Assembly (NCBI GenBank): GCA_964495025.1
Contig: CAZBUF010000557.1
Coordinates: forward strand, 1-35,306
From: an uncultured Bacteroidales bacterium
Lineage (GTDB): Bacteria; Bacteroidota; Bacteroidia; Bacteroidales; UBA10428
DNA: 35,306 nt
Reading direction: 5' to 3'
Positions 4,794 through 30,105 of the stretch are shown piece after piece. Position numbers and translations under genes: made by a program. Numbering within the stretch: position 1 is the first letter of the stretch; the number at the start of each line of letters is the position of its first letter. The notes beneath the pieces are model-generated. The model was not told the origin of the DNA. It did not search any database and was given only the letters and a program-made list of their open reading frames with translations.

Positions 4794-4804
4794 TTTTGTA
4801 TTGT

Positions 4805-8020: not shown

Positions 8021-8064
8021 GATATTATTAGGTATTTGGTTTTAATGTTTTCTTAAAATCATAT

Positions 8065-8085
8065 TACCTGCATATCAGGCAGGTA
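8065..8085 (-). terminator. Weak hairpin directly after the GH31 stop and upstream of susC.
   Basis: TACCTGC-atatcag-GCAGGTA (7-bp stem). It abuts the GH31 stop at 8088. On the minus strand it is followed by ATATGATTTTAAG. Confidence 0.3.
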
Positions 8086-8087
8086 TG

Positions 8088-10916: not shown

Positions 10917-10932
10917 TGGTAAATGATTTTAA

Positions 10933-10965
10933 AGAAGATAATATGCTGCCCGGGTATTATCTTCT
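10933..10965 (-). promoter_or_regulatory. Strong hairpin between the HTCS stop and the GH31 start; terminator or translational/attenuation element.
   Basis: AGAAGATAATA (10933-10943), an 11-nt GC-rich loop, then TATTATCTTCT (10955-10965): a perfect 11-bp stem. Its base is 17 nt upstream of the GH31 ATG (10916). On the minus strand it is followed by TTAAAATCATTT. Confidence 0.4.
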
Positions 10966-11084
10966 AAATTTAATTTGTGTCAGCAGGTGTATTCCAGGTT
11001 CTAAAAGTAGGGGATGTGAAAGAATTTAAGAGGACTGAATGTTTTCAACTAGGGGTTCAAATGTTAACAGAAAAATAAATTCTG

Positions 11085-14000
11085 CTAATTGCTTTTATTC
11101 TCAGAATATAATGAAGGCAGTGTTTTATACTCAGCTTTAAAGTGTTTTGCGAAGTATTTAGGGTTATTAAAACCGACAGTGTAGGCAATTTCCGAAACAG
11201 ATAACTGGCTTTTCTTAAGCAGCTGAGCAGCTCTTTTCAAACGTATTAATCGTATAAACTCAATGGGGGTTTTTCCTGTGAGGTAAGATAATTTTTTATA
11301 TAAATGGACACGGCTCATTGCCATCTCGCGGCTAAACTGTCTTACGGAGAAATCGGGCTCAGAAATATTCTTTTCAACAACATCAAGAGCTTTTCGTATT
11401 AACTTTTCATCTAATGATGTAATGCTGATATCCCCCGGCTGGATTTTTATTTGTTTGAGGTAATCTTCCCTAAGAGCTTTTCTGAGAGAAATAAGGTTGC
11501 TTATCCTCGATTGCAGTATTTCAAATGAGAACGGTTTTGTAATATAATCATCAGCTCCTGATTCAAAGCCCTCTATCTTTTGTTTTTCTGTTGCCCTTGC
11601 AGTAAGGAGGATAACAGGAATATGAGATGTTTTCTGATGACTTTTAACTTTGCGGCATAATTCTATGCCATCTCCTTCTGACATTATGATATCGCTGACA
11701 ATAAGATCAGGGACAGAGTGAACAGCTTTTTTCCAGCCTTCTTTTCCATTGGCCGCTTCAATAATATTATAATGCTGTAAAAGATTGTCTTTAAGGTAAA
11801 AACGGAAATCCTCATTGTCTTCAACAAGCAGTATCAAAGGCTTCTTATGATCTATCCTGTTTCTTTTAAGGCGGCTTGTTATATTATGTTGTTCTGAACC
11901 GGCATGCGACTTAGCTGACATATCAACAGATGTTTGCTCTGCAATATATTCATCAGCACTTCTCACAGGCAGCAATACAGCAAAACTGCTGCCTTTGTCA
12001 GGCTGGCTGTTTATAGAAATCTCACCCCCGTGAAGTTTTACAAATTCTTTGGTTAATGCAAGTCCTACGCCACTACCTCTGTTGATAACGGAACCCGGAA
12101 CAATATCCTGAAAGAAACGTTCGAATATTTTCTCATGCTTATCGGAAGGTATCCCTATACCTGTGTCGGTTACAGTTATTTCGAACCATCCGGGCCTGCT
12201 AGTCGTATTTTTCTTTTCATCGGCAGGATTTGCACTTATGGTTATGCTACCGTGCTCGTGAGTGAATTTAAAGGCATTTGAAAGAAGGTTATATAAGATC
12301 TTTTCGAGCTTATCCTGATCAAATATCATATTTAAATTATCAATGCCTGCCTGTATTTTAAAATCGATCTTTTTCTTATCTGCAAGATCTGAAAATGATT
12401 CGGACACTTCCTTTATAATACTTATAATATCACCTTCAGTGGGATTATACCTGAACTCTTCCACTTCCATTTTTCTGAAATCAAGCAACTGGTTGGCAAG
12501 GTTTAGTAATCTTTTTGCATTCCTGGAGATCATTAAAAACTGATGTTTCTGATCAGGGTCCCTGGTGTTACCTAATACTTTATTAACAGGATCAATAATA
12601 AGTGACAGGGGTGTTCTGAATTCATGGCTGATATTTGTAAAGAACTTGATTTTCATCATGTCCATATCATGCATATGTTTGGCTTCCTGCCTTTCCTGCT
12701 TTATCCTGTTGTTCATTCTTTCCCTTCTTACGATTAACATCCGGGAAAACAATAGTATGCTTATAATAAGAATAATATATATTAAAAATGCAATCCGGGT
12801 TTTCCAGAAAGGGGGCAGAATTGTAATACTAAGACTTATACCATCTTCATTCCATATACCGTCATTATTACTTGCCTTAACTTTAAAGATATATTCTCCG
12901 GGATCCATGTTCGTGAATGTTGCTTTTCTCTGTGTGCCATCTGTTGTCAGCCAGTCAGTGTTAAAACCCTCAAGTATATATGCGTACTTATTTTTTACGG
13001 GATGAAAGTAACTTAATGCGGCAAATTCAATAGAGAATACATTTTCACTGTATTTTAAGATAATCTTCTTTGTGCGTGTTATTGATTGTTTAAGAATTAC
13101 CCTGGCATTTAGCTTTTCACCGGCATTAATACTTTTATTGAAAATTTGAAAATCGGTAAAAGCAAGTTCAGGTATAACAAGATTCTCCTTTATTTCACCG
13201 GGCTGAAAAATGTTAAATCCGTTCGGGCCCCCGAATATTAATTCTCCCCGGCTTGTCTTGCAGGCTGCGTTCTCATTGAACTCTTTTCCCTGGAGTCCGT
13301 CTGATTCATCATAGTTCTTAAAACTGAATATGTACGATCCGTCTTGCCGGTCTTTTCTTATCAATAAATTAGAAAGGCCGTTAGGTGTGCTGATCCACAG
13401 ATTGCCATTACTGTCCTCCAGAATTGTATTAATCGTGTTATCAGGCAACCCGTCCTGCATCATAAAAACCTTAAAGGTTTTATCGGCTTTATTAAATAAA
13501 TTCAATCCTTCACGTGTGCCTACCCATATAAGGCCGCGGCTATCCTCAATAATAGTAATAGTATTATTATTACTTAAGCTTAAAGGATTAGTTATATCAT
13601 TGTTATAATGAATAAAACTGTTGAGCTGCCTGTCATAGAAATCTATTCCGTGTGCATGCCCAATCCACAGATTACTGTTATTATCCTCAATAATTGAAGT
13701 AATGTAATCAGAATGAACAGAATTGGCATCCCCGGCCCTGAAATGATGAAATTTATTTGTCTTACGGTTCATTAGATCCAGTCCCTTGCCTAATGTGCCT
13801 ATCCAGAGATTCTCTTCCGAGTCCTCAAATATTTCCCAAACACGATCATCTGAAAGGCTTCCGGGATCAGAAGGATCATTGCGGTAATGAATAAATTTTT
13901 TACCGTCAAAACAATTCAAGCCACCGTAGTAAGTTCCAATCCATAATTTTTGTGTACGGTCAATAAATAAACTGACAATTATATCATTACTAAGACTGTT

Positions 14001-15278
14001 AGGATCATCCGGATTATGTGTATATTTTCCTAACCTGTTCTTACTTCGGTCATAGAACATTAATCCTCCTCCGTTTGTGCCGATCCAAAGATTACCGTTA
14101 ATATCCTCAGCAAAACAGTTAACATCATCATAAAACAAATTATCAGGATCAATTACCTGATTCCTGAACAGGTTGAATTTAATCATATCTTCATGGTAGT
14201 AATTGACGCCTTTTTTGAAAGTACCAATCCAGATAATACCGGCGTTATCCTTATATAATGAACATATACTGTTCTGACTCAGACTTTTATCGTACTCTTT
14301 GTCGTTTGAAAGATATTTGATTGTGAAAGTGCCTTTATCCAGTACGTTGATACCTCCGTGATCAGTACCTATCCATATTAATCCGTTAATATCCTGCACA
14401 ACACCTTTCACAACATCAGTATTTAACTTAATACCCGATGATTTTGTATTTATATGCTTAAAAGACCGGCGTGACGCATCAAAATAAAATATACCCCGGG
14501 CATAGTTGGATACGTAAATCCAGATATCTCCTTCTGAATCAACATAAATACCGTATTCAAGGTACTCACCATCATAGTTTTTGTATAAGTAATTATTTCT
14601 GTAAATAATTTTGCTACTTCTGTGATCCATCTTTTCAAGTATACCATTATGATGTATAATCCAGAGATCATTATCAGGATCCTCGTAAATATCTGATATG
14701 AAATTTGTGAAAACAGAAGCACTGTCATCAGGGTTATGATTGAAATTGAAAGTAGCATTGTCTTTCCTGCTGTATTTGTGAAGGCCGGACACCGAGCCTA
14801 TATACCAGTAGTTGCCGGGATTGTCTTTGTATATCTTATTTATCGACTCATCATTTATATTTAATGCGTTAAGAAAGGATGATGTGTCATGATGAAAAGT
14901 TTCGTCAAGGGGATCATAAATGTTCAATCCGTTGTTAGTGTTAACCCATAACCTTCCGCGATGATCCTCGAAAACGCTGGTGATGAAATTGTCACTTATT
15001 GATGTTGAATCAGGAAGATCATGTCTGAATATTTTAAAATTGTACCCGTCAAACCTGTTAAGCCCTGACTTTGTTCCAAACCACATGAAGCCAATACTGT
15101 CTTTCAGAATACAATTTACCTGGTTATTTGATAGTCCGTCGTTAATATTCAGGTGAGAAAATTTGAAATGATCCGGCTGGGATATGAGCATAAATCCTGA
15201 AACTGCCCATAAGAGAATTATAAGAAAACTCTTTTGATTAGCCATGATAATCTTACTTAGTATGTATCTGACAGTCAT
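11085..15278 (-). CDS. Hybrid two-component system sensor kinase/response regulator (HTCS): periplasmic beta-propeller repeats + Y_Y_Y, TM, HisKA, HATPase, REC, AraC HTH.
   Basis: Many Reg_prop-like repeats (LWIGT, IWIGT, LWVGT). TM segment (IAFLIYIILIISILLF). H-box FTNISHEFRTPLSLI. ATPase G-boxes (VTDTGIGIP, GSGVGLAL). Receiver domain (ILLVEDNEDF...DLIVSDIIM...LLTA). AraC HTH (VSEIAYTVGFNNPKYFAKHFK). The start could instead be Met12 (MANQKSF, about 15245). Confidence 0.95.
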   Translation of the reverse strand: MTVRYILSKIIMANQKSFLIILLWAVSGFMLISQPDHFKFSHLNINDGLSNNQVNCILKDSIGFMWFGTKSGLNRFDGYNFKIFRHDLPDSTSISDNFITSVFEDHRGRLWVNTNNGLNIYDPLDETFHHDTSSFLNALNINDESINKIYKDNPGNYWYIGSVSGLHKYSRKDNATFNFNHNPDDSASVFTNFISDIYEDPDNDLWIIHHNGILEKMDHRSSKIIYRNNYLYKNYDGEYLEYGIYVDSEGDIWIYVSNYARGIFYFDASRRSFKHINTKSSGIKLNTDVVKGVVQDINGLIWIGTDHGGINVLDKGTFTIKYLSNDKEYDKSLSQNSICSLYKDNAGIIWIGTFKKGVNYYHEDMIKFNLFRNQVIDPDNLFYDDVNCFAEDINGNLWIGTNGGGLMFYDRSKNRLGKYTHNPDDPNSLSNDIIVSLFIDRTQKLWIGTYYGGLNCFDGKKFIHYRNDPSDPGSLSDDRVWEIFEDSEENLWIGTLGKGLDLMNRKTNKFHHFRAGDANSVHSDYITSIIEDNNSNLWIGHAHGIDFYDRQLNSFIHYNNDITNPLSLSNNNTITIIEDSRGLIWVGTREGLNLFNKADKTFKVFMMQDGLPDNTINTILEDSNGNLWISTPNGLSNLLIRKDRQDGSYIFSFKNYDESDGLQGKEFNENAACKTSRGELIFGGPNGFNIFQPGEIKENLVIPELAFTDFQIFNKSINAGEKLNARVILKQSITRTKKIILKYSENVFSIEFAALSYFHPVKNKYAYILEGFNTDWLTTDGTQRKATFTNMDPGEYIFKVKASNNDGIWNEDGISLSITILPPFWKTRIAFLIYIILIISILLFSRMLIVRRERMNNRIKQERQEAKHMHDMDMMKIKFFTNISHEFRTPLSLIIDPVNKVLGNTRDPDQKHQFLMISRNAKRLLNLANQLLDFRKMEVEEFRYNPTEGDIISIIKEVSESFSDLADKKKIDFKIQAGIDNLNMIFDQDKLEKILYNLLSNAFKFTHEHGSITISANPADEKKNTTSRPGWFEITVTDTGIGIPSDKHEKIFERFFQDIVPGSVINRGSGVGLALTKEFVKLHGGEISINSQPDKGSSFAVLLPVRSADEYIAEQTSVDMSAKSHAGSEQHNITSRLKRNRIDHKKPLILLVEDNEDFRFYLKDNLLQHYNIIEAANGKEGWKKAVHSVPDLIVSDIIMSEGDGIELCRKVKSHQKTSHIPVILLTARATEKQKIEGFESGADDYITKPFSFEILQSRISNLISLRKALREDYLKQIKIQPGDISITSLDEKLIRKALDVVEKNISEPDFSVRQFSREMAMSRVHLYKKLSYLTGKTPIEFIRLIRLKRAAQLLKKSQLSVSEIAYTVGFNNPKYFAKHFKAEYKTLPSLYSENKSN

Positions 15279-15409: not shown

Positions 15410-16522
15410 TTAAAGGTAAACATTGATCCCACTTCCGTCAAGGAGGTTATAAGGAGCATCAAGGCAGGACAGGCACAAATCATTATTGTTTATTTTCTTT
15501 ATCCGTGATTTCATAACACTTTCTTTGCAGGAGCTGCATATAACACTATCATGTATTGGTGCATAATCGGGGATTTTAACCATGGTTTCTGTTATGGTAA
15601 AAAGCTTGTTGAAAGGGATATTCAATGTGTCGAAGGCACAGCTTAATGCTGCTTTTTTATAAAGTGATTTAAGATTTTTATCATGGTTTTGTTTCACGAC
15701 AACTTTACTGTAATATTTATCGAAATCAGGATTTATTTTCAGGATAGTATCCCTTGACTGCGGTAATGAACAAATTCTGATTCCTTTGCCATGCCTGCTG
15801 GCAAGGGTAAATGCCGTTTTGCCCAGATCCTTGAATATTAATGCGTTATTACCAAATGTGCATCCGGTGACATACTGAACGCCATCTGAAAAACAGTTGT
15901 TGGTTTCAGTTATTGCCACAATATCCTCCATCCCGTCTGAGAATGTTTTCATTTCTTTTACGGCTCCTGAAGCGGCAATAACACCCATAGCGAGTCCCGG
16001 GCATATATGCCTGTGTATCTGGCCGGCATTAATAAGTAATTGTTCAAGGTTGCCTGATAATACATATTTTATAATATCACATCCGGGATCTGCTTTAAGC
16101 CTCCCCTTATTAATTTCACTGTTTATTTCATTATCACTGAATATCGAGTTATCACAGGGCTTAATGTCAATGACAGGTGTATTGTTAATTGCATCCAGTC
16201 CTTCGACAATAAGTTTATTCCTTATACATTTTATCAGTTTTACAGTTGTTATTCCTATTGAGTTCGGCCTGTCAGGACTGCGTGAGGCAAAGACGCCCCG
16301 TTCGGCACCCGTATGTATTTTAAGTGTCATTCTGTAATTCTGCGATTTATGAAAATAGAAGACGACATCAAGGTATTCACAATCACCGATATTTAAGAGT
16401 GCTTCCGTGTATTTATCGTCGATAATTATTGTACTCTGATTTTTCTTTATTTCCCGGTGATCAGCAGGCTCATTAAATTTATTCTCAACAATACCTACAG
16501 GTTTCAATTGATAATTCTCCAT
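15410..16522 (-). CDS. Fusion protein: N-terminal TrmO/TsaA (YaeB, UPF0066) SAM-binding beta-barrel domain, FmdE-family domain (PF02663 type), and C-terminal zinc ribbon. No signal peptide.
   Basis: TsaA motifs: LKPVGIVEN, RGVFASRSPDRPNSIGITTVKLI, EGLDAINNTPVIDIKP. FmdE motifs: HRHICPGLAMGVIAASGA, VAITETNNCFSDGVQYVTGCTFGNNALIFKDLGKTAFTL. Terminal CSSCKES...N11...CLSC. It is the last gene of the nikR-led operon, 33 nt after the ATPase. Confidence 0.85.
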   Translation of the reverse strand: MENYQLKPVGIVENKFNEPADHREIKKNQSTIIIDDKYTEALLNIGDCEYLDVVFYFHKSQNYRMTLKIHTGAERGVFASRSPDRPNSIGITTVKLIKCIRNKLIVEGLDAINNTPVIDIKPCDNSIFSDNEINSEINKGRLKADPGCDIIKYVLSGNLEQLLINAGQIHRHICPGLAMGVIAASGAVKEMKTFSDGMEDIVAITETNNCFSDGVQYVTGCTFGNNALIFKDLGKTAFTLASRHGKGIRICSLPQSRDTILKINPDFDKYYSKVVVKQNHDKNLKSLYKKAALSCAFDTLNIPFNKLFTITETMVKIPDYAPIHDSVICSSCKESVMKSRIKKINNNDLCLSCLDAPYNLLDGSGINVYL

Positions 16523-16555
16523 GCTCAGAACTTGTTATTATTATAAATTGTTGTT

Positions 16556-17314
16556 TTACAAACCTTCAGGAACGATATAAAGACCTTCATTTTCACTTAT
16601 AATACGGACCCTGATATCGTAAAGCTTTTCAATATTTTCCGGTGTTATGGTTTCCCTGCCTCCGCAGGCAAATATTCTTCCTTCCTTAAGCATTATAATA
16701 TTGCCGGCATAGCGTATGGCCATGTTAATATCATGCAGGGCAATAACGACTGTTATTCCCTTGGCAGATAATGTTTTCAGCAGTTCCATAACTTCGATCT
16801 GGTGTTTTATATCGAGGTTGGCAGTGGGTTCGTCAAGAAATAAAATATCGGGTTCCTGGGCCAGGGCTCTTGCTATAAGGACAGCTTGCTGTTGTCCGCC
16901 GCTGAGCTTGTTCATCTCCCTCATTGCAATATCCTGCAAATGCAGGGCGCTGAGAATGTCGGCAGTGACATCAAGATCATGCACCGAAGGCTTCCAGTTT
17001 ATATAGGGCTTACGTCCCAGAAGCACAACGTCGAACACACGAAGTGATGATTTTCTGCCTTCGTTCTGCGGCACATAGGCTATTTCTTTTGCGAGCTCAC
17101 CCGGCGCGAATGAGTGAATGATCCTTTCATCGATCAGCACCGTGCCTTTACGCACTTTGAGTATTCCATTCATGCATTTTATAAGGGTACTCTTTCCTGA
17201 ACCGTTAGGTCCGACAAGAGCAACAAAGTCCCCTTTGGCAATCCGGCTGTTTATATTCTGTAAAGCCGGTGTGCCGTTGTAGCTGAAGACAATATCATGA
17301 ATGGTTATTTTCAT
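16556..17314 (-). CDS. ABC transporter ATP-binding protein, FecE/FepC/BtuD (NiuE-like) class.
   Basis: Walker A GPNGSGKST, signature LSGGQQQ, Walker B ILFLDEPTANLD, H-loop ALHD. Confidence 0.95.
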   Translation of the reverse strand: MKITIHDIVFSYNGTPALQNINSRIAKGDFVALVGPNGSGKSTLIKCMNGILKVRKGTVLIDERIIHSFAPGELAKEIAYVPQNEGRKSSLRVFDVVLLGRKPYINWKPSVHDLDVTADILSALHLQDIAMREMNKLSGGQQQAVLIARALAQEPDILFLDEPTANLDIKHQIEVMELLKTLSAKGITVVIALHDINMAIRYAGNIIMLKEGRIFACGGRETITPENIEKLYDIRVRIISENEGLYIVPEGL

Positions 17315-17367
17315 GCTTTTATTATTATAAGCTCCTTTTTCATTTAAAGATACTGTAATTTATATTA

Positions 17368-18435
17368 CTACCAGTAACCTTTACCCATCCCTTTTATAAG
17401 CAGAAATAAAAATAAGGGGGCACCTATAAACGATGTAACGATACCTACCGGCAGGATAACCGGAGATATAACAGTTCTGGCCAGTGTGTCGGACAGAAGC
17501 AAAAACATTCCCCCGAAAATAGCTGATGCAGGAATCAGGAATTGTTCGTCACCCCCGATAATACGGCGTACGATATGAGGAACAACCAGTCCGACAAATG
17601 CGATAATACCAAAAAAGGCCACTACAACCGCAGTTGCCAGTGCCGCAACAATCATACCTGACAAACGTACGGCTGTTATATTCACTCCCAGGCTTTTTGC
17701 ATGCTCGTCGCCTGATTGTAAAGACTTGTAGTTCCAGCTTTGCCGGATAAAAAACAATATAACCGGAATCAGAGTAATTGCCAGTATAAGCGAATTCTTC
17801 CATGTTGCCCTTCCCAAATCACCGAAGGTCCAGAATACAATTGAAGCAAGCTGGACACTGTCAGCAAAATACTGCATGGCTGAAATTCCTGCGCCAAACA
17901 GGGAAGAAATGATGATACCGGAAAGAATTATTATCTCGGGAGTCGCCCCCCTGTATTTTGACAATAGCAGGATAACGGCCACACTGGCCAGGCTCCATAT
18001 AAATGCTGAAGTTGTAACAAGGTACGGATTATTTACTGCTGCGACATCATTTGACCCGCTGTAGCTGCTTCCCGCCCCAAGCACGACGATGGCAAATGCC
18101 GCACCAAAAGCCGATGACCCTGATATGCCAAGAGTGAAGGGTGAAGCCAGGGGGTTCCTCAATATACTCTGAATGACAGCCCCTGACATAGACAACGCTA
18201 TTCCACCCAGGCAGGCGCCGATAATGCGGGGCATCCTTATACTTAATACAACCCGGGATGTAAATTCAGTACCTTTGCCGAGCAGAAGGCTGTAAAGATC
18301 CTTAAGGCCTATACCGGCGGAGCCTGAAATAAGAGCAGCCTGTATCACTATTAAAAGAATAACCGAAACAGAAATGATAAAAAATATCCTTCTTTTTACA
18401 TACTTCCTGTATTGTGCGACAATCTTATCCGGCAT
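17368..18435 (-). CDS. FecCD/BtuC-family ABC permease (type II importer).
   Basis: 355 aa and polytopic. FecCD-typical segments: RMPRIIGACLGGIALSMSGAVIQSILRNPLASPFTLGISGSSAFG, GGDEQFLIPASAIFGG, PVGIVTSFIGAPLFLFLL. Its start overlaps the binding-protein stop (TGATG), suggesting translational coupling. Confidence 0.92.
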   Translation of the reverse strand: MPDKIVAQYRKYVKRRIFFIISVSVILLIVIQAALISGSAGIGLKDLYSLLLGKGTEFTSRVVLSIRMPRIIGACLGGIALSMSGAVIQSILRNPLASPFTLGISGSSAFGAAFAIVVLGAGSSYSGSNDVAAVNNPYLVTTSAFIWSLASVAVILLLSKYRGATPEIIILSGIIISSLFGAGISAMQYFADSVQLASIVFWTFGDLGRATWKNSLILAITLIPVILFFIRQSWNYKSLQSGDEHAKSLGVNITAVRLSGMIVAALATAVVVAFFGIIAFVGLVVPHIVRRIIGGDEQFLIPASAIFGGMFLLLSDTLARTVISPVILPVGIVTSFIGAPLFLFLLIKGMGKGYW

Positions 18436-19535
18436 CAGAAATCGTTTTTACTCATTGTCCTGAAAATATATGAATCAGCTGTCATCTCACCGTATAGCTC
18501 TTTACCAAGAAACATTTCTGATATCTCATTGGTCTTTTGCTCAACGTCAACATCGGCAAAGCTTCCGGGGTACAACATTTTGCCTGCATACCAGGCATTG
18601 GCCAGAACCAGCTCATAGTTCACAGCATAGTTGTTGTAGGGCATAAGAACATAAATCTTATCATTCATGACAGCATCCAGTGCATTATATAATACTGTGT
18701 TTTTTGCAAGGTCTTCTTTTACAAGGCTTAAACCCGATTGATCAATGAACAGAACATCGGGATTCCATTTCATTAACTGTTCCTTGTCAATATAAGTACC
18801 CTTTACATGCGATACTAACCTTTTGTCAATATCTGAAGCCACATTCACAGCATTTATAAATATAAAAGGGGGATAATACGGCTGTGTTGAAATTATACCA
18901 TATGTTCCGCTGTAAGGAACACCTCCTATATAGACTGATGGCTTGTCTTTCTTCGCAATGGCTGCGGTCCGCCTGTTCAGGTCGTCAACAGAACTTCTGA
19001 TATATGTGATAAGCGAATCCGCCCTGCCTTCCTTATGAAGTATTTTACCTATAAGCTGAAGAGAGGCGAAAAGGATATCCCTGTGAGTGCCGAATTCGGG
19101 ACATTCGAGTGCCACCACGGGAATACCTGTTTTTTTCTGAAGATCATCGGCATCACCGGTAGTGGTGTAGGTAATAAATATAACATCCGGTTGCGATTTT
19201 AAGATCAATTCGGCATCTCCGCCCATTATTGGTCCTAATGACGGCAAATCATACAATTCAGGATGTGCCGTAAGATAAGGCCTGCTACCTCTCCTTTCGG
19301 CTTCTTCAATGCCGGCAACCATATCCGAAGCATCCATATATATCAGTAAACGCAAAGCCCCTGCCCGCAATCCTGCGATCTTTTTTACCGCTGAAGGAAC
19401 ATACACCTCTCTGCCAAGCATATCTTTTACAGCGGCCATCCCCGCCTGATCCGAGGGGGCCCGGCCGGTGCAGCCTGTTATGAATATAACCGGCATGAAC
19501 AATATAAGTGTCCTTATTTTATATATCTGCAGCAT
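18435..19535 (-). CDS. Periplasmic substrate-binding lipoprotein of the Fe-siderophore/cobalamin/heme (cluster A, Peripla_BP_2; CeuE/NiuB-like) class.
   Basis: I place the start at Met34 of the listed ORF (MLQIYKIRTLILFMPVIFITGCTG, a lipobox). Its ATG at 19535-19533 lies 1 nt after the receptor stop (19537). The longer 19634 start would overlap the receptor gene. Peripla_BP_2-like features: KKIAGLRAGALRLL, PDVIFITY, WNPDVLFID. Confidence 0.85.
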   Translation of the reverse strand: MLQIYKIRTLILFMPVIFITGCTGRAPSDQAGMAAVKDMLGREVYVPSAVKKIAGLRAGALRLLIYMDASDMVAGIEEAERRGSRPYLTAHPELYDLPSLGPIMGGDAELILKSQPDVIFITYTTTGDADDLQKKTGIPVVALECPEFGTHRDILFASLQLIGKILHKEGRADSLITYIRSSVDDLNRRTAAIAKKDKPSVYIGGVPYSGTYGIISTQPYYPPFIFINAVNVASDIDKRLVSHVKGTYIDKEQLMKWNPDVLFIDQSGLSLVKEDLAKNTVLYNALDAVMNDKIYVLMPYNNYAVNYELVLANAWYAGKMLYPGSFADVDVEQKTNEISEMFLGKELYGEMTADSYIFRTMSKNDF

Positions 19536-19536
19536 A

Positions 19537-21570
19537 TTAAAGTTTGATGGCCACCCTGCCTGTGATAACCCTGCCCGGAGAAATATAATCTGTTGTTTCC
19601 ATATGTTCGTTGTCAAAGATGTCCTGGACGTCAAGTGAGATTATAAATTTGTCCGCTATTTGCTTTGACAGGCGTAAATCAAATGTAAAATAAGAATCCA
19701 GCTTTTGCGTATTCGCATCATCGCCATATTGTTCTCCTTTATATAATCCCCTGATACTGGCATTAACAATTTTATTTTTTAAGAATACCGAAGCGGAAGC
19801 AGTGTGTTTAGGTACATATTTCAGATATTTCTTTTCCAGGTCCGGCCTTTCTGTAAAAGCATCGATCTTTGAGTCGCAGTAAGCATAATTGGCCATAATA
19901 TCCAGGACATCGGACAGCTCATACGAAACTTCGAATTCTGCTCCCATGATATTTACGCCGGTAACGTTTTCCCTGATATAGATGGCCCGCCCGAAAATAC
20001 TGTCACCTGTTGAAACATAGTACAGGAAGTCTTTGCCGGTGGAGTAATAGGCTGAAGTCGATATCTTCAGTCTGCTGACAGGAAAAATATCAAATCCTGC
20101 CTCAAAATTATTCATTGTTTCGGGGCCCAGCTCAGGATTGGCATATTTTGGGCCTACCCACATCCAGCCTGTACGTGTAAGGTCATCAAGAATGGATGCC
20201 CTGAAACCATGTGAGTACGACAGGTAGGCGCTTAGTTCCTTAATGAAGTTAAACCTCATGCCCAGCCTTGGAGACAGTTCGGTCCATGTATGATCCCTGA
20301 GCTCAGGTGTGGTGTTCCACGGATCTGTGGTGTAGTAATCTCCTCCGGTGAATTTTACCTGGTCGAGACGCAGGCCGGCAATAATCCTTATCCTGTTGTC
20401 AAGCAAAACATGCTCATCCTGGATAAAGCCTGCTATGGTTTGAATTTTACCCTCGTTATATACCGTATCATATGGTGCCGTCTGGTAATAATCACCACCT
20501 TCAATGCTGCCCTGTTTGAATTCGAAACCACCGGTTACCGTATTATTTTCTGTCAGCTCACCGTTTATGCTGAACAGTGTTCCCAAATCCTCTCTTAACG
20601 AGTTCACATCATAACGCGAGTAATTTCCGCCCCTCATATTTTCATTTATATCATAATAATGCTCGAGCTGGTAATAGGTATTGAGTTCGTAATGCAGATT
20701 TTCGTTGCCGCCATTCAGGTTCCCTCGAATAAGGTCGGTGTTAAAATTTCTGTAGCAGCCTTCAGGGGCATAAATCCGGTAACCCTCGCCTCTTTTATCT
20801 CTGAAAGCATCATATTGCAGCTCCCACTTAAACCATCCCGACTCGTCATACCCTGCCCTGGCGGATATGCCGATCTCTTCCAGCGAGCGTGAAATATCAT
20901 AAGGAGTGCGGTTTTCCTTCAGTACATTGTTGTATCCGTCGCTTTTCAGATAATACTGTGAAACGGAACCGTAGTAGCCTTTATCAGTGAGTATCCTCAC
21001 ATTCAAATCCTGCCTTATTGTACTGAATGTGCCGAAACTTACGGCACCAAAAATTTCCTGTGGCTTCACCGGCTTCCTGGTAATAATATTTATAACCCCT
21101 CCCATGGCATTATTCCCGTATAATGAGGAGCCGGGGCCCTTGAAGATTTCGATCTGCTTTACATCATACTGGTTTATTCGGTTCCAGTTTACACCGCCCT
21201 CATCGGAAGTATTTATGGGAACGCCGTTTAATAATACAAGGGTCCTGGATTGTTCATCACCTGATAATCCTCGCAGGGTGATCATCGGACGCTGACTGTA
21301 TATCCCTGTTGTCCGGTTTACATTTATTCCGGGAGTATATCTCAGTATGTCATCAACCTGCTGGGCAGGTGTCGATTCAATCGCATCCATCCTGATAAGC
21401 GAAATTCTGCCCGGCACTTCCCTTATATTACGAAAGGTTTTTGTTGCTGTTACTACCACTTCTTCAAGCTCAATAGTGTCATTCAGAGTTTCCTGCGTGT
21501 AAACCCTTGAAAATGATAAAATTACTATTGATGCCAGTAGGGTAGTTTTCATTCTGAATAATGTTCTCAT
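19537..21570 (-). CDS. TonB-dependent outer-membrane receptor (plug + 22-strand barrel class); putative nickel-chelate receptor by context.
   Basis: Signal peptide, then TonB box (ELEEVVVTATK). Plug motifs: RISLIRMDAIESTPAQQVDDILRYTPGINV, ITLRGLSG, LLNGVPIN, IEIFKGPGSSLYGNNAMGGVINIIT. It sits between nikR and the ABC importer genes. Confidence 0.9.
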   Translation of the reverse strand: MRTLFRMKTTLLASIVILSFSRVYTQETLNDTIELEEVVVTATKTFRNIREVPGRISLIRMDAIESTPAQQVDDILRYTPGINVNRTTGIYSQRPMITLRGLSGDEQSRTLVLLNGVPINTSDEGGVNWNRINQYDVKQIEIFKGPGSSLYGNNAMGGVINIITRKPVKPQEIFGAVSFGTFSTIRQDLNVRILTDKGYYGSVSQYYLKSDGYNNVLKENRTPYDISRSLEEIGISARAGYDESGWFKWELQYDAFRDKRGEGYRIYAPEGCYRNFNTDLIRGNLNGGNENLHYELNTYYQLEHYYDINENMRGGNYSRYDVNSLREDLGTLFSINGELTENNTVTGGFEFKQGSIEGGDYYQTAPYDTVYNEGKIQTIAGFIQDEHVLLDNRIRIIAGLRLDQVKFTGGDYYTTDPWNTTPELRDHTWTELSPRLGMRFNFIKELSAYLSYSHGFRASILDDLTRTGWMWVGPKYANPELGPETMNNFEAGFDIFPVSRLKISTSAYYSTGKDFLYYVSTGDSIFGRAIYIRENVTGVNIMGAEFEVSYELSDVLDIMANYAYCDSKIDAFTERPDLEKKYLKYVPKHTASASVFLKNKIVNASIRGLYKGEQYGDDANTQKLDSYFTFDLRLSKQIADKFIISLDVQDIFDNEHMETTDYISPGRVITGRVAIKL

Positions 21571-21600
21571 TTAATGGAATTCTATTTAGGTTTTTACTTA

Positions 21601-21627
21601 GTAATACTATATAATATTTCGTGTTAC
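21601..21627. promoter_or_regulatory. Candidate NikR operator between nikR and the TonB-dependent receptor gene.
   Basis: GTAATAC-N13-GTGTTAC. The half-sites are a 6/7 inverted repeat and the spacer is AT-only apart from one C. The site lies 31-57 nt upstream of the receptor ATG (21570). Its architecture matches the second box at 22048-22074. Confidence 0.4.
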
Positions 21628-21644
21628 CATATAAATAAAAAAAA

Positions 21645-22046
21645 TCAGTTTGCCCTGCTCATTGTCAGTTTTCCGTGCCGTATACCTTTTACAGCAATAA
21701 GCTTGTCTGACAGCCCTGTTAAAACCGAAGCTTTCCCTTTAACCGCAATTATCTCCATGCAATTATCATGGTCGAGATGGAAATGCTGTGATGAAAGTAT
21801 CACCTCGTGATAATCATGCTGTATATCAGTGAGCTGATTCAGAATATCGCGTTTATGATGATCATAGACCAGTGTAACCGAACCTGCAACGATATTGTTG
21901 CACAGCCATTTTTTTTCGACAATGTTCTTGTTTATTAAATACCTTATAGCCTGTGATCTGTTTGAGAGATGATTTTCATTAATATAATCATCCAATGCAT
22001 CCATTAGTTCTTTTTCAAGCGAAACGCCAAATCTGATAACTGACAT
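21645..22046 (-). CDS. nikR: Nickel-responsive transcriptional regulator NikR (ribbon-helix-helix + ACT-like Ni-binding domain).
   Basis: N-terminal RHH (IRFGVSLEKELMDALDDYINENHLSNRSQAIRYLI). C-terminal high-affinity Ni site pattern HFHLDHDNC (H-x-H-x5-C) with an upstream His cluster (VYDHH, HDYHE). 133 aa is the typical NikR length. Confidence 0.92.
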   Translation of the reverse strand: MSVIRFGVSLEKELMDALDDYINENHLSNRSQAIRYLINKNIVEKKWLCNNIVAGSVTLVYDHHKRDILNQLTDIQHDYHEVILSSQHFHLDHDNCMEIIAVKGKASVLTGLSDKLIAVKGIRHGKLTMSRAN

Positions 22047-22047
22047 A

Positions 22048-22074
22048 GTGTTACCTTTTAAAAATAAGTGATAC
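22048..22074. promoter_or_regulatory. Candidate NikR operator (autoregulation) directly upstream of the nikR start codon.
   Basis: GTGTTAC-N13-GTGATAC (5/7 inverted repeat). It begins 2 nt upstream of the nikR ATG (22046) and ends 7 nt downstream of the minus-strand -7 box. It could also serve the divergent 22265 gene. Confidence 0.4.
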
Positions 22075-22153: not shown

Positions 22154-22222
22154 ACAGCCGGTAAGGAAGGGGGCTGTCCCCTCCCTTGAGACAGCCTGTC
22201 AGTAAGGAGGCTGTCCCCTCTC
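22154..22222. repeat. Two tandem about 37-nt units, each forming an ACAGCC/GGCTGT hairpin with a GTAAGGA-containing 12-nt loop followed by CCCCTC.
   Basis: Unit 1: ACAGCC (22154-22159) ggtaaggaaggg GGCTGT (22172-22177) CCCCTCCC. Unit 2: GACAGCC (22190-22196) tgtcagtaagga GGCTGTC (22209-22215) CCCTCTC. It lies in the nikR/22265 divergent intergenic region. Confidence 0.8.
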
Positions 22223-22264: not shown

Positions 22265-23722
22265 ATGAGAAAAGTTCTTTTCCTGATAGCTTTTGTTTTT
22301 CTTTTCTTATATAGTGTTGTGTATGCTCATTCGGGGAAACCCGACTACAGGGTTATTATCGATACTGATTGTGCTTTTGACGATTTCAGGGCTATAACAA
22401 TGCTTCTGGCATCATCAAAGGTTGAGGTGCTGGGCATAACCACCTCTGACGGCACACTTGATCCTGTTGAGGGACAGCAACGGATCAGATCCCTGCTGAA
22501 ATGTTTTCATCACGAAGGTATACACGTGGCCGGAGGGGAAGTAGTGATAAAAACACCTCCCGCATGGAGGGGACTGAATAAATGCATACCATGGACGGGA
22601 GAGGAGGCACAGGGTACAAATATAAATAATGATTTATCAGCCAGGGATTTTATAATCAAGACGATAAGTAATGAGGTGAAACCCGTGACCGTAATTTGTC
22701 TGGGCAGCCTCACTAATATAGCAACTGCAATTCAGAAGGAAGACAGCATCATAAGAAATATTGAAAGAATAATATGGTATAACAGGGGTAATGATATTGA
22801 AAACGGCACAAATTACGGGTTTGACATATCTTCAGCCGACTTCATAATCAGATCGGGCATAAGGATTGATATGGTTTCAAATCCGCAACACGAAGGATTA
22901 AAATATGACAGTGCTTTATCAGATAGTATCGCAGGCATAAACTCAGTTTATGCAAGACAAATTTCATATGTTCATAATAGTGATGAGCTTAAAAATATAT
23001 CTCATAAAGGCTATCTGAATATTTGGGATGATCTTCTGCCGGTATATTTATTGTCGCCCGGAGCATTTACCGCTGACAGTTCCGTCAAATTTCCCGGCCT
23101 CAGATTAGTGAAGCCCGCTGATGAGATTAAGATAAAAGAACAGATAATTGATATTCTTGATATTGACAGATATAGTGAGAGTAAGGTATTTGAAAGGTTC
23201 CCTGCTGATAGTTCATTGTACAGGAATGATGTTGCAGCGGTGATGAATGAAATAATTGATAAACACGGACTGCAGGAGTGGAGACTTGGAGTATTGACAA
23301 ACGAGATACACGGACATCTTGGAATTTATGCAACTGTTGGTGTTAAAATGGGGCTCAGGGCAAGGGAGTATTTCAATATAGGCCTGGACGATATCAGGAT
23401 CATAAGCTATGCGGGAAGGCAACCACCGGTAAGTTGCATGAATGACGGATTGCAGGTAGCTACCGGCGGTACGCTGGGGCACGGACTGATATTCCTGGCT
23501 GACGAAACTAAAGGCAAGCCAAAGGCTTATTTTTCATATAAAGACAAAACAGTAATAATAAGACTTAAGGATGAATATGTGAATATCATTAAAAATGATA
23601 TTAAGCAATGTATTTCTGAGCATGGTAATTTAACCAATGAATACTGGGAATGTGTGAGAAAACTGGCAATTGAATACTGGCTGGCATGGGACAGAAATAT
23701 TATGTTTGATTTGGAGTATTGA
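22265..23722 (+). CDS. Secreted/periplasmic fusion protein: inosine-uridine nucleoside hydrolase (IUNH)-like N-domain plus a divergent FmdE-like C-domain.
   Basis: Signal peptide MRKVLFLIAFVFLFLYSVVYA. IUNH Ca-binding fingerprint VIIDTDCAFDDFRAI (DxDxxxDD) and ICLGSLTNIA. The C-terminal region aligns by eye with the FmdE pattern of the 15410-16522 protein: HGHLGIYATVGVKMGLRA versus HRHICPGLAMGVIAASGA, and SCMNDGLQVATGGTLGHG versus NCFSDGVQYVTGCTFGNN. The CPG cysteine is lost. Transcribed divergently from nikR. Confidence 0.7.
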   Translation: MRKVLFLIAFVFLFLYSVVYAHSGKPDYRVIIDTDCAFDDFRAITMLLASSKVEVLGITTSDGTLDPVEGQQRIRSLLKCFHHEGIHVAGGEVVIKTPPAWRGLNKCIPWTGEEAQGTNINNDLSARDFIIKTISNEVKPVTVICLGSLTNIATAIQKEDSIIRNIERIIWYNRGNDIENGTNYGFDISSADFIIRSGIRIDMVSNPQHEGLKYDSALSDSIAGINSVYARQISYVHNSDELKNISHKGYLNIWDDLLPVYLLSPGAFTADSSVKFPGLRLVKPADEIKIKEQIIDILDIDRYSESKVFERFPADSSLYRNDVAAVMNEIIDKHGLQEWRLGVLTNEIHGHLGIYATVGVKMGLRAREYFNIGLDDIRIISYAGRQPPVSCMNDGLQVATGGTLGHGLIFLADETKGKPKAYFSYKDKTVIIRLKDEYVNIIKNDIKQCISEHGNLTNEYWECVRKLAIEYWLAWDRNIMFDLEY

Positions 23723-23737: not shown

Positions 23738-23759
23738 GGGGGGACAGCCCCCCCTTTTT
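23738..23759 (+). terminator. Intrinsic-terminator-like hairpin after the IUNH/FmdE-like gene.
   Basis: GGGGGG-ACAG-CCCCCC(C) followed by TTTTT. It begins 16 nt after the stop (23722) and ends 13 nt before the next ATG (23773). Read on the minus strand, 23727-23754 is GGGGGGGCTGTCCCCCCTGTCCCCTCCC, an inverted copy of the repeat family. Confidence 0.6.
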
Positions 23760-23772: not shown

Positions 23773-24483
23773 ATGAGTGAACAAATTTGGGTACTTTCAG
23801 TAACGGCGGCATCTGTAGGTTTTATACATACCGTTCTCGGGCCGGATCATTATCTTCCGTTCATAGTTATGTCTAAAGCAAGAAAATGGTCAATATTCAA
23901 AACGGGTTTTATTACTGTATTGTGCGGAATAGGCCATGTAGGGAGTTCGATACTCATTGGCGCGCTGGGCATTGCATTTGGCATAGGATTATCACGCGTA
24001 AAAGGATTAGAGGGCATGCGCGGTGAGATAGCCGCATGGGCTTTTATTGTCTTCGGGTTCATATATATGCTTTGGGGCATATACAGGGCAGTAAAAAATA
24101 AGCCTCATAAACACCGGCATATTCATAATGGAGTGGCACATGAGCATGAGCATGTACATGCAAATGATCATGATCACACACACAAGAGTGAGAAAGCCAT
24201 AAATTTAACACCCTGGGTGCTCTTTCTTATTTTTGTACTGGGGCCGTGTGAGCCCCTGATTCCCATATTAATGTACCCTGCTGCCAGGCATAATACACTG
24301 GGGATAATTACAGTATCCCTGATATTTGCTGTTACAACCATATTAACTATGCTCATCCTGGTTCTGCTTGTCTCTTTCGGATTAAAATCCTTGCCCTTCG
24401 GAAAGCTGGAGAGATATACCCATGCCATAGCCGGCGCCACAATATTGTTAAGCGGTTGTGCAATCGTGTTCCTTGGATTGTAA
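23773..24483 (+). CDS. Six-TM membrane protein with a central His-rich loop; putative Ni/Co transporter of the NicO/RcnA- or HupE/UreJ/UreH-like type. Transport direction unknown.
   Basis: TM1 motif GFIHTVLGPDHYLPF, which I compare (from memory) with G-F-x-H-x3-G-x-D-H of HupE/UreJ and GFxHAxxPGHGK of RcnA. Central loop HKHRHIHNGVAHEHEHVHANDHDHTH. Second-half motif LGPCEPLIPIL, which I recall as RcnA-like G-x-x-P-C. Family assignment is by motif only. Confidence 0.6.
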   Translation: MSEQIWVLSVTAASVGFIHTVLGPDHYLPFIVMSKARKWSIFKTGFITVLCGIGHVGSSILIGALGIAFGIGLSRVKGLEGMRGEIAAWAFIVFGFIYMLWGIYRAVKNKPHKHRHIHNGVAHEHEHVHANDHDHTHKSEKAINLTPWVLFLIFVLGPCEPLIPILMYPAARHNTLGIITVSLIFAVTTILTMLILVLLVSFGLKSLPFGKLERYTHAIAGATILLSGCAIVFLGL

Positions 24484-24497: not shown

Positions 24498-24577
24498 CAA
24501 GGGGGGGCAGCTCCCTAAAGGAGGCTGTCCCCCTCCGAAGGAGGCTGTCCCCTCTGTAAGGAGGCTGTCCCCTCTAT
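24498..24577. repeat. Tandem array of 20-bp units AAGGAGGCTGTCCCC(C)TC-NN: three near-perfect copies plus one degenerate copy.
   Basis: U1 24518-24537 aaggaggctgtccccctccg. U2 24538-24557 aaggaggctgtcccctctgt. U3 24558-24577 aaggaggctgtcccctctat. Degenerate U0 24498-24517 caagggggggcagctcccta. The 20-mer GTAAGGAGGCTGTCCCCTCT at 24556-24575 is identical to 22202-22221. The array lies between convergent genes, and U3 overlaps the stop of the 24574-26688 CDS. Confidence 0.85.
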
Positions 24578-28769: not shown

Positions 28770-29636
28770 TCAGAGGTTGCTATTCAGCCACTTATACCAT
28801 TCATCCATGCCCTGTCCTGTTTTTGCCGACAGTTCAATGAACTGCAGTTCAGGATTGACCTTTAATGCATATTCTTTTGCTTTTTCCAGGCTAAAATCAA
28901 CGTAGGGGAGAAGGTCAGTTTTATTAATTATACAAAGCGCGGAACTTCGGAACATATAGGGGTATTTTACGGGTTTGTCCTCACCTTCGGTAACACTCAT
29001 GATCAATACCCTGTGACTCTCACCGAGATCAAATAATGCCGGGCAAACAAGATTACCCACGTTCTCGATCATAAGGATCGAATTATCGGGGATATTTAAT
29101 TTCTTTACTGCGGTACTTACCATTTCAGCATCAAGATGGCACCCGCTTCCTGTATTGATCTGAATGACCGGTGCTCCTGTTGATCTGATCCGGTTTGCAT
29201 CGTTCAATGTTTGCTGATCCCCTTCAATAACTGAAAAATTAATTTTCCCCGGCATCTCCTTTATTGTTTTTTCCAGGATACTTGTCTTGCCTGAGCCGGG
29301 AGAACTGACAAGGTTAATAGCTTTAATATTTTTCCCTTCGAAAAATCCACGGTTTCTTTCAGCCAGGAGGTTGTTCTTATATAAAACATCCTGTTCGACC
29401 TCAATCTTTCTGTCGTGGGTATGGGGGTGAGTATGATCGTGGCTATGCACATGCCCGTTGCTACTATGTTCATGATCATGGTTGTGAGTATGCCCGTCGA
29501 TTTCATGCTCATGATCATGACTATGTCCATGTTCATTGCTTTCATGTTCGTGAGAATGTTTCCCTTTGCCAGTATCTCCGGGTTTTAAAACCGTATATTT
29601 CGTATCAGGGTTGCCGCAGCCGCAAGTGTCACACAT
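28770..29636 (-). CDS. hypB: Hydrogenase/urease nickel-incorporation GTPase HypB (G3E family) with a His-rich N-terminal stretch.
   Basis: N-terminal high-affinity site MCDTCGCG. His-rich tract (HSHEHESNEHGHSHDHEHEIDGHTHNHDHEHSSNGHVHSHDHTHPHTH). P-loop SSPGSGKTS. CH motif (GSGCHLDA), ENVGNLVCP, INKTDL. Confidence 0.95.
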   Translation of the reverse strand: MCDTCGCGNPDTKYTVLKPGDTGKGKHSHEHESNEHGHSHDHEHEIDGHTHNHDHEHSSNGHVHSHDHTHPHTHDRKIEVEQDVLYKNNLLAERNRGFFEGKNIKAINLVSSPGSGKTSILEKTIKEMPGKINFSVIEGDQQTLNDANRIRSTGAPVIQINTGSGCHLDAEMVSTAVKKLNIPDNSILMIENVGNLVCPALFDLGESHRVLIMSVTEGEDKPVKYPYMFRSSALCIINKTDLLPYVDFSLEKAKEYALKVNPELQFIELSAKTGQGMDEWYKWLNSNL

Positions 29637-29763: not shown

Positions 29764-30105
29764 TTAATCGACGTTTATTGATTTTACCCTCAGTTCTTTT
29801 CCACGTATAATGTCAAAACCAAACGAACCGCATTGCGGGCATTGTTCAATATGGCTTTCCGGAGAGAACTCAGTGCCGCATTCGTTGCACCTTGCCTTTG
29901 ACTTTATTTCATTTATTGTAATTTTCGCATTTTCAAGCAGCGTATCAATGACCGCTGATTCCAGTGCAAATTCAAGGGCTTCCACTATCACTCCGGATAG
30001 AACGCCAACGTCGATCTCAACCTCATTTATTCTTTCAGCGCCGGCATCTTTTGCTGTTCCGGAAGCGATATCAACAATATTCAGTGCAACTGAGAATTCG
30101 TGCAT
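29764..30105 (-). CDS. hypA: Nickel insertion metallochaperone HypA.
   Basis: 113 aa. N-terminal MHEFS (Ni-binding MHE motif). Zn site CNECG...CPQCGS. Confidence 0.9.
   Translation of the reverse strand: MHEFSVALNIVDIASGTAKDAGAERINEVEIDVGVLSGVIVEALEFALESAVIDTLLENAKITINEIKSKARCNECGTEFSPESHIEQCPQCGSFGFDIIRGKELRVKSINVD

Follow-up and report, generated by a model that had tools for sequence, protein, structure and literature searches.

The stretch of DNA analysed here, called the window throughout, is the 35,306 nts of contig CAZBUF010000557.1 from an uncultured Bacteroidales bacterium. On its forward strand, at positions 22265..23722, an open reading frame (ORF) encodes a 485-amino-acid (aa) protein in which a nucleoside-hydrolase-like module is fused to a module resembling FmdE, and the possible part of this fusion protein in nickel acquisition is the subject of what follows. 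The nucleoside-hydrolase-like domain, residues 30–269 (22352..23071), matches PF01156 (IU_nuc_hydro) with 86.9 bits against a Pfam cut-off of 34.2, and its assignment also draws on Foldseek and on an alignment of 77 relatives. The FmdE-like domain, residues 348–481 (23306..23707), matches positions 1–132 of the 133 in PF02663 (FmdE) with 54.3 bits against a cut-off of 22.9, and profile alignment and Foldseek again bear on it. Ahead of both is a predicted Sec signal peptide, residues 1–21 (22265..22327), with cleavage after VYA. The N-terminus, MRKVLFLIAFVFLFLYSVVYA|HSGK, reads as the charged, hydrophobic and A-x-A-like succession of such a signal, as an earlier note on this DNA had held. All 34 homologues that were aligned have a comparable hydrophobic leader ahead of a conserved (H)SGK, and the AlphaFold2 (AF2) model has a lone N-terminal helix (residues 2–18) and then a low-confidence linker. 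No lipobox and no type IX secretion system (T9SS) tail is evident by eye in the protein, so that export to the periplasm as a soluble protein is probable and the simplest way to read the leader. The predicted mature N-terminus H-S-G-K (residues 22–25, 22328–22339) has its His in 61 and its Ser in 68 of the 77 relatives, and His22 could be an extra metal ligand.

The full-length AF2 model, built with 34 homologues, has a predicted local distance difference test (pLDDT) score of 85.9 and a predicted template modelling (pTM) score of 0.86. In the Protein Data Bank (PDB), Foldseek matches it best to RihA/YbeK and to nucleoside hydrolases of plants and protozoa (E ~1e-13, template modelling (TM) score on the target ~0.73). 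The identity of the C-terminal half was less obvious from sequence: phmmer and profile searches against PDB sequences gave a marginal match to 2GVI (E 0.01) beside spurious matches to PCNA. It was structure search with a domain-only model of residues 318–485 (pLDDT 80) that settled the fold. There are just three significant PDB matches and all are FmdE chains, 2GVI with E 5e-6 and a TM score on the query of 0.69, and two chains of 2GLZ with E 5e-5. Since the Pfam profile and the Foldseek structure agree, the FmdE-like assignment is right, and the unrelated fold that the earlier note had allowed for did not turn up. Pfam detects no SBP_bac_5 or Peripla_BP_2 domain in the protein, and the fold search returns only nucleoside hydrolase and FmdE structures.

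In crystallised FmdE, His15, His17, Cys19 and Cys55 hold a metal that is exposed to solvent, and the site in 2GLZ is mixed Zn/Ni (PMC2954224). Profile alignment to 2GVI places H349 (23309–23311), H351 (23315–23317), G353 and C391 (23435–23437) of the fusion protein at His16, His18, Cys20 and Cys61, respectively. The canonical His-x-His-x-Cys...Cys site is therefore not present in full, the position of Cys19 being Gly in 77 of 77 relatives. In this set, which extends down to ~40% identity with the window protein and on which all residue counts here are based, H349, H351, G353, C391, N393, D394 and Q397 are invariant. A further residue, H406 (23480–23482), occupies the Lys/Asn position of canonical FmdE and is His in 72 of the 77. 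With Gly in place of the Cys, and with H406 conserved, the putative site is now His2Cys instead of His2Cys2, a third His probably being added. Such a composition would make sense in an oxidising compartment and would suit Ni(II) or Co(II); we infer that nickel is bound at H349, H351 and C391, perhaps with H406. The divergence is plain on comparison with a cytoplasmic FmdE-containing protein encoded elsewhere in the window (15410–16522, see below). The motif HGHLGIY...VSCMNDGLQVATGGT of the fusion protein corresponds to HRHICPG...NNCFSDGVQYVTGCT there and, over a longer stretch, HGHLGIY...SCMNDGLQVATGGTLGHG corresponds to HRHICPG...C...TGCT, so the CPG cysteine has indeed been lost, as was first noticed from the sequence.

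For the nucleosidase-like module, residues were mapped by profile alignment to the Leishmania inosine–uridine nucleoside hydrolase (IUNH; 5TSQ) and RihA (Asn160, Glu166, Asn168, His241 and Asp242 below are in Crithidia-type C. fasciculata numbering). The Ca2+ and catalytic residues D33, D35, D39, D40, T150 (in LTN), N183 and D255 are essentially invariant. The DxDxxxDD fingerprint, to which the earlier note had also drawn attention, is D33-T-D35-C-A-F-D39-D40 and is unchanged in 76 of the 77 relatives, the remaining one having an alignment gap. Equivalents of the Ca2+ ligands Asp10, Asp15, the Thr126 carbonyl and Asp242 are all there. Conservation of the catalytic His and Asp residues, which the note had wished to see checked, is by contrast only partial: the Asp/Ca2+ set is kept, but the His is not. 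W254-D255 aligns with the His-Asp pair of 5TSQ (the equivalent of His241-Asp242), with Trp in 75 of the 77. N183, the equivalent of Asn168, is the sole survivor of the ribose-binding set Asn160/Glu166/Asn168; the position of Glu166 is G181 (Gly in 71 of the 77) and the loop bearing Asn160 is deleted. Two further Trp residues, W101 and W110, are conserved in the β3-α3 loop region. Nucleoside hydrolases are grouped by the residue before the last Ca2+ Asp, which is His in group I, Trp in group II and Cys in group III, and the pocket of the fusion protein is of the Trp type, group II-like, with marks of the purine-specific inosine–adenosine–guanosine nucleoside hydrolases (IAG-NH) (PMC8910321). 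The NCBIfam models for RihA and RihC give at best 51 bits (cut-off 433) and 49.5 bits (cut-off 382), and none of the equivalog cut-offs of the Rih subfamilies tested (RihA, RihB, RihC, UriH) is reached. With scores of ~50 bits against cut-offs near 400, the protein lies outside every characterised Rih subfamily. We take Glu166 and Asn160 to be contacts of the ribose 5′-OH, a point on which a literature check found nothing. If they are, a C5′-substituted substrate or a non-catalytic binding role would follow. The module may be catalytic.

The fusion is widespread. At least 1,655 relatives are found at E≤1e-3, the best 120 all having both Pfam domains, and 533 of 185,579 GTDB species genomes encode a relative. 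The hosts are mostly Bacteroidales (Alistipes, Odoribacter laneus, Parabacteroides, Tannerella, Rikenellaceae), together with Aminicenantes and Acidobacteriota. When a profile of the FmdE variant was run against 1.84 billion cluster representatives (clusters at 50% identity), 263 clusters were matched at E≤1e-30. Nearly all are 450–520 aa with the FmdE variant at the C-terminus, so that the variant hardly ever occurs without the nucleosidase module. Most short hits have no recognisable leader and could be fragments. [A rare stand-alone FmdE variant, the 233-aa P0376, has a signal peptide of its own and a His/Asp-rich stretch, HEDHRDH, in place of the nucleosidase module.] Databases name the fusion protein ‘nucleoside hydrolase’ only, in some cases ‘pyrimidine-specific ribonucleoside hydrolase’. 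The literature search found no paper pairing FmdE with nucleoside hydrolase, nor nucleoside hydrolase with a cobalamin riboswitch, and its matches for FmdE with NikR and for FmdE with nickel were incidental. The author of the earlier note did not recognise an exported IUNH-FmdE architecture as described, and the literature found bears this out; the architecture is undescribed rather than rare, however, as it is frequent in databases under the name of its first domain.

What genes accompany the fusion was surveyed in 84 non-redundant loci (given L numbers here), in which ORFs were called, clustered by all-against-all BLAST and the neighbours scored. The commonest partner, in at least 38 of the 84, is a TonB-dependent receptor of ~633 aa whose gene comes just before the fusion gene in the same direction and often overlaps its start codon (the count is 41 loci with three antisense ORF calls included). 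These receptors form one orthologous group with 43–80% mutual identity. In 11 loci, belonging to four separate clades of the family tree (that of the window, that of L030, that of L082 and L084, and the Aminicenantes-type clade of L006), nikR is present and heads the operon. A His-rich membrane protein of family PF13386 is encoded in 13 loci; its gene comes right after the fusion gene in 10 of these and precedes the receptor gene by a few kb in the other three. One locus, L074, has the order hypD-hypE-hypA-hypB-permease-Rex-like-93aa-receptor-fusion, and L053 has the same gene order by cluster assignment. The Rex-like regulator there (Put_DNA-bind_N + CoA_binding), encoded with the 93-aa ORF between permease and receptor (6789–7723 of L074), hints at a redox input into nickel and hydrogenase genes. 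In the Alistipes locus L060, genes for a urea transporter, NikM (CbiM+PDGLE) and an ATP-binding cassette (ABC) ATPase are ~2–8 kb upstream of the receptor-fusion pair. The same ATPase, NikM-like and major facilitator superfamily (MFS) clusters recur in L055, L057 and L063, as judged by cluster assignment and not by Pfam. The co-localisation with metal genes for which the earlier note had proposed a search is thus found in many lineages, with nikR, hypDEAB, nikMNQO or urea transporter genes, or the PF13386 Ni/Co-type permease, and contexts of the nickel type occur in nearly every major clade of a neighbour-joining tree.

Predicted NikR operators point the same way. The published consensus, GTGTTAC-N13/14-GTAACAC, is delta-proteobacterial and includes a reversed half-site arrangement (PMC545781). 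A conserved site before nikR in the present loci, GT(A/G)NCAC-N13-GTAACAC, ends 2 nts before the ATG and matches that signal. A scan of 1.42 Mb of loci with the pattern GTRNYAC-N13/14-RTRWYAC gave 24 unique sites, where block-shuffled controls led to an expectation of 4.5 (no more than 11 in any of 30 shuffles). Of these 24 operator-like sites, 21 come directly before nikR, the partner receptor gene or the fusion gene. Nine loci have a box with no adjacent nikR (L023, L033, L034, L035, L037, L038, L043, L054 and L069), and in L048 the box ends 4 nts before a stand-alone fusion gene. From these positions, the receptor-fusion(-permease) unit is a core member of the predicted NikR regulon in these organisms. 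[In L006 a perfect GTGTTAC-N13-GTAACAC is before the gene (9270–10004) for a 230-aa, near plug-only TonB-receptor protein that lies between nikR and the fusion gene; L007 has the same. A TonB-receptor plug without a barrel is unusual.]

In the window itself, the fusion gene is divergent from nikR (21645..22046, − strand), as the earlier note had described. The 133-aa product has NikR_C and RHH_1 domains, and scores 152 bits against a cut-off of 105 with NCBIfam NF003381. Between the two genes a NikR-box-like sequence, GTGTTAC-N13-GTGATAC (22048..22074), is 2 nts from the nikR ATG and 191 nts from the ATG of the fusion gene. At that distance NikR control of the window copy is plausible by way of the shared divergent region, and is less secure than in its relatives. 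A second box-like sequence, GTAACAC-N13-GTATTAC (21601..21627, − strand), is 31 nts upstream of the gene for a 677-aa TonB-dependent receptor (19537..21570, − strand). Directly downstream of the fusion gene is that for the 236-aa, His-rich, six-helix-type membrane protein of family PF13386 (DsbD_2; 23773..24483, + strand). It has an N-terminal HTVLGPDH and a central loop HKHRHIHNGVAHEHEHVHANDHDHTH, and is likely to be the inner-membrane nickel permease of the module. Because genes for the nickel metallochaperones of [NiFe]-hydrogenase, hypB (28770–29636) and hypA (29764–30105, both − strand), are 5–6 kb downstream of the fusion gene, the organism must use nickel. With the MeaB-type GTPase (32179–33267) on the same contig, a protein which goes with B12-dependent methylmalonyl-CoA mutase, it uses both nickel and B12.

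The right flank of the window (the permease gene, a TPR-SpoIIE gene and a PKD gene) is syntenic with L010, the fusion protein of which is 71% identical. L010 has the usual order, (nikR)-receptor-fusion-permease. In the window the usual ~633-aa receptor is missing and nikR is reversed, leading a different NikR-boxed operon that encodes the 677-aa receptor, Peripla_BP_2, FecCD, ATPase and TrmO_N-FmdE. The 677-aa receptor was considered as an orthologue of the usual partner and ruled out, the identity being only 24–25%. Profile searches identify the genes that follow as those of an ABC importer of the BtuFCD/Fec type (16556..19634, − strand), with Peripla_BP_2 (18435–19634; start codon uncertain), FecCD permease (17368–18435) and ABC ATPase (16556–17314). 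[With the listed TTG at 19634 as its start, the Peripla_BP_2 ORF shares 98 nts (19537–19634) with the final part of the receptor gene; it probably begins further downstream.]

A GC-rich repeat, GGAGGCTGTCCCC(TC), has six copies in the window where 0.02 are expected. The sites (22172–22220, 23738–23749 and 24523–24574) fall in the three intergenic spaces around the fusion and permease genes, and the three copies downstream of the permease gene are ~20 nts apart. The repeat is absent from 92 related loci, including the syntenic L010, and may be a REP/MITE-like element (repetitive extragenic palindrome or miniature inverted-repeat transposable element) tied to local rearrangement. That its hairpins constitute a riboswitch was entertained and rejected: the repeat is local, its folding is no better than that of shuffles (z = −1.8) and there is no Rfam match, the nikR/fusion intergenic region having no known RNA even at E≤1. 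Far to the left, at 1829–15278, is an unrelated polysaccharide-utilisation locus (a protein like surface glycan-binding protein B (SGBP-B), SusD, a SusC-like receptor, a glycoside hydrolase family 31 (GH31) glycosidase and a hybrid two-component regulator), which confirms the Bacteroidota origin of the contig.

The operon led by the reversed nikR ends in the gene (15410..16522, − strand) for a second FmdE protein, a 370-aa TrmO_N-FmdE fusion that keeps the canonical HxHxCPG...C site and has a CxxC...CxxC finger at its C-terminus. Its relatives number at least 1,234 at E≤1e-10, and the best 120 all have both domains. A TrmO_N-FmdE fusion is also present in Methanosarcinales and Archaeoglobales (PMC11237513). 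Comparable operons are found in three distant Bacteroidota, namely in Natronoflexus (L090; nikR-PBP-FecCD-ATPase-...-TrmO/FmdE, PBP being the periplasmic binding protein), and in Marinilabiliaceae and another Bacteroidota contig (L091, receptor-PBP-FecCD-ATPase-TrmO/FmdE; L092, hypDEAB...nikR-receptor-PBP-FecCD-ATPase-TrmO/FmdE), once being beside hypDEAB. A NikR box is before the receptor gene in L091 and before nikR in L092; the only one found in L090 precedes a second, divergent receptor gene adjoining TrmO/FmdE. The stretch from 15410 to 21627 accordingly looks like a second conserved, NikR-controlled uptake system that ends in a cytoplasmic FmdE fusion. As L090–L092 repeat the layout, the presence of one exported and one cytoplasmic FmdE module, which the earlier note had seen in the window alone, is a recurring design, with TrmO_N-FmdE closing NikR-boxed operons in other Bacteroidota. 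On a simple reading, an ABC importer that brings a nickel complex into the cytoplasm would go with a cytoplasmic FmdE and a secondary ion permease with a periplasmic one, FmdE being placed where the carrier yields its metal.

We consider it probable, if only just, that the fusion protein handles nickel in the periplasm, between receptor and inner-membrane permease, with a ribosyl ligand engaged by its nucleosidase pocket. It would be the soluble periplasmic part of a NikR-repressed, TonB-dependent nickel route of Bacteroidota and of some Aminicenantes and Acidobacteriota. In this scheme the ~633-aa outer-membrane receptor would import nickel, probably as a complex, to the periplasm, where the nucleosidase module would most likely recognise, and possibly hydrolyse, a ribosyl-containing metal carrier; the earlier note had speculated on the binding or trimming of a nucleoside-containing or ribosylated nickel ligand. 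The FmdE-like site (His349, His351 and Cys391, with His406 probably replacing the lost Cys) would take the metal. Hand-over to the PF13386 permease would come next, and this permease (NikMNQO in some Alistipes) would move Ni2+ to the cytoplasm for HypA/HypB or for urease maturation. The window would be a variant in which the usual receptor has been replaced by the inverted nikR and the second NikR-boxed system. A wider suggestion, speculative and in our view unlikely, is that FmdE is generally a nickel-release or capture module, paired with a nucleoside-recognising domain and positioned on whichever side of the membrane the metal is freed. At similarly long odds, the pairing would be of a group II-like nucleosidase with a secondary permease in the periplasm, and of a S-adenosylmethionine (SAM)-binding TrmO_N domain with a BtuCD-type importer in the cytoplasm.

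Several observations weigh against the nickel scheme. All support for it is computational and no paper was found that describes the architecture. Many loci of the Aminicenantes type, and some of Bacteroidota (Rikenellaceae L079–L081; L089), have no metal gene within 10 kb. In the window, 191 nts that include GC-rich hairpin repeats separate the box from the ATG, and NikR control of this copy is likely but less than certain. The main observation for which the scheme does not account is that three Alistipes loci have the fusion gene in cobalamin-riboswitch operons. In L087 (Alistipes muris, 4687–11449) the riboswitch (RF00174, 97 bits) is followed by DUF4465-297aa-BtuB-like receptor-fusion, with 25 nts between the last two genes; L083 (4595–13252) is similar with the addition of DUF5074 and an aminotransferase, and L086 (357–3124) is riboswitch-DUF4465-fusion with no receptor between. 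The receptor in these operons is of a different family (~27% identity over ~300 residues to the partner receptors). DUF4465 is a B12-binding domain of Bacteroides BtuH-type proteins (PMC13398666). These loci are what favours a protein that is accessory to corrinoid or cobalt uptake, remodelling or binding cobamides after BtuB. Its nucleosidase pocket would take the nucleotide loop or adenosyl group, the FmdE His and Cys residues would ligate Co, and the nickel contexts would be secondary. That the key residues are identical in the two contexts is in keeping with it; no residue signature separating nickel-type from B12-type loci was found in the alignment. We nevertheless regard it as quite improbable. 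The three loci make up a single subclade inside an Alistipes clade of the neighbour-joining tree, and the other members of that clade are near nikMNQO or urea-transporter genes; Rfam detects no cobalamin riboswitch in the window, L023, L051, L058 or L060, and a recent review of Bacteroides cobamide import names no such protein. Given the nesting, and nickel contexts in nearly every major clade, our reading is that the riboswitch subclade was recruited secondarily for the traffic of cobalt or corrinoids, and Ni/Co duality is known for other transporter families (PMC2667541).

The missing Glu166 and Asn160 equivalents make hydrolysis of ordinary nucleosides doubtful. Together with replacement of the catalytic His241, they give substance to the idea of a protein that shuttles or buffers nickel without catalysis, its nucleoside hydrolase fold being a scaffold, or a domain for docking to the receptor or permease, with no ribosyl ligand. 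The FmdE-like site, perhaps with the Asp cluster, would then bind Ni2+, and the evidence of nickel context applies equally. There are precedents: XopQ has the fold and keeps the Ca2+ site, is inactive on nucleosides and binds ADP-ribose, and in an IAG-NH a Ni2+ complex has been seen 3.8 Å from the Ca2+ (PMC8910321). A mere scaffold is, however, hard to square with near-invariance at ~40% identity of the Ca2+/ribose-diol set D35, D39, D40, T150, N183 and D255 and of both Trp residues, and we hold the shuttle to be plausible and yet, on balance, rather unlikely. An ordinary periplasmic hydrolase for nucleoside salvage, with only an incidental nickel link, is what the automated name ‘pyrimidine-specific ribonucleoside hydrolase’ implies, and fold and Ca2+ site are present. 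It is extremely unlikely in view of the low RihA/RihC scores, the obligate fusion to a metal-binding domain, the pairing with a TonB-dependent receptor and NikR boxes, and the lack of Glu166/Asn160 counterparts. The names given to the PF13386 neighbour in the sources (‘nickel/cobalt exporter’, ‘RcnA’, ‘NicO family’, ‘TauE/SafE’) raise a different doubt, about the direction of transport, which we infer to be import. Were PF13386 to export, the fusion protein would sequester nickel or cobalt in the periplasm for detoxification. There is very little chance of this, as operons that open with nikR and an importer-type receptor, are beside hyp genes and have boxes over the promoter/5′ region have the layout of nickel-repressed uptake.

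Should the wider suggestion about FmdE be right, Bacteroidota would import nickel via TonB-dependent receptors as a complex with a ribosyl- or adenosyl-containing nickelophore, the N-glycosidic bond or 5′-substituent of which is processed to release Ni2+. The orphan FmdE subunit of methanogens would then be understandable as a metal-delivery factor. Were the nucleosidase module catalytic, it would indicate that a new class of metal carrier exists. To our knowledge, no function has been given to FmdE in all the time since the sequencing of the fmd operons, and the solved complex of formylmethanofuran dehydrogenase does not contain it. Two FmdE architectures in predicted NikR regulons, one for each side of the membrane, make a role for FmdE in nickel acquisition testable. 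The route looks like the main TonB-dependent one for nickel in gut and sediment Bacteroidales (Alistipes, Odoribacter, Parabacteroides, Tannerella), and nickel supply to hydrogenases and ureases bears on H2 and urea turnover in the gut. A 2009 comparative-genomic survey found a transporter assigned to nickel or cobalt in two of 30 Bacteroidetes genomes (PMC2667541). The B12-riboswitch subclade suggests reuse of the same periplasmic device for cobalt or corrinoids, an echo of the Ni/Co duality of NiCoT, HupE/UreJ and CbiM/NikM.

Comparison with known systems shows what is shared and what is not. With the FmdE/FwdE family (2GLZ, 2GVI, 3D00) the C-terminal module has in common the alpha+beta core (Foldseek E 5e-6 to 5e-5), the motif order H-x-H ... 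C-x-N/D-D-G-x-Q ... T-G-x-T and three of the four metal ligands. It differs in the invariant Gly for the third-ligand Cys, in the new His (H406) in the TGxTxGxG loop, in having no C-terminal zinc finger, in its probable periplasmic location and in having no tie to formylmethanofuran dehydrogenase or methanogenesis; there are no fmd or fwd genes in the window, nor any among the annotated neighbours of related loci. Like the group II nucleoside N-ribohydrolases (IAG-NH of Trypanosoma vivax and T. brucei), the N-terminal module has the nucleoside hydrolase fold, DxDxxxDD, the Ca2+ ligands, the Asn168 equivalent, a Trp directly before the last Ca2+ Asp and conserved Trp in the β3-α3 loop region. 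Unlike them it has a predicted export signal and an FmdE domain, an almost invariant Gly at Glu166 and no Asn160 loop, and it scores far below all the characterised Rih/IUNH subfamilies. The TrmO_N-FmdE protein shares with it the joining of FmdE to a domain of nucleoside/SAM-binding type and encoding in a NikR-boxed receptor/importer operon. That protein is, however, cytoplasmic, has the HxHxCPG...C site and a zinc finger, and is partnered by an ABC importer rather than a secondary permease.

The nearest functional parallel is in Helicobacter pylori, where nickel uptake involves the receptors FrpB4 and FecA3, CeuE/NiuB with FecDE/NiuDE, and the permease NixA, under NikR. By that analogy a receptor, a periplasmic protein and a permease under NikR would make up an arrangement already known, with Helicobacter as its model. 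Both have a NikR-controlled receptor, a periplasmic nickel-handling protein (here a predicted one) and an inner-membrane transporter that feeds hydrogenase or urease maturation. What is new is a periplasmic component that falls outside the known classes of nickel-binding protein and ties the orphan FmdE domain to nickel. In H. pylori a class III substrate-binding protein has this place, whereas in the loci described here it is taken by the nucleoside hydrolase-FmdE fusion with a His-rich PF13386 permease, and the receptor is of a family specific to Bacteroidota.

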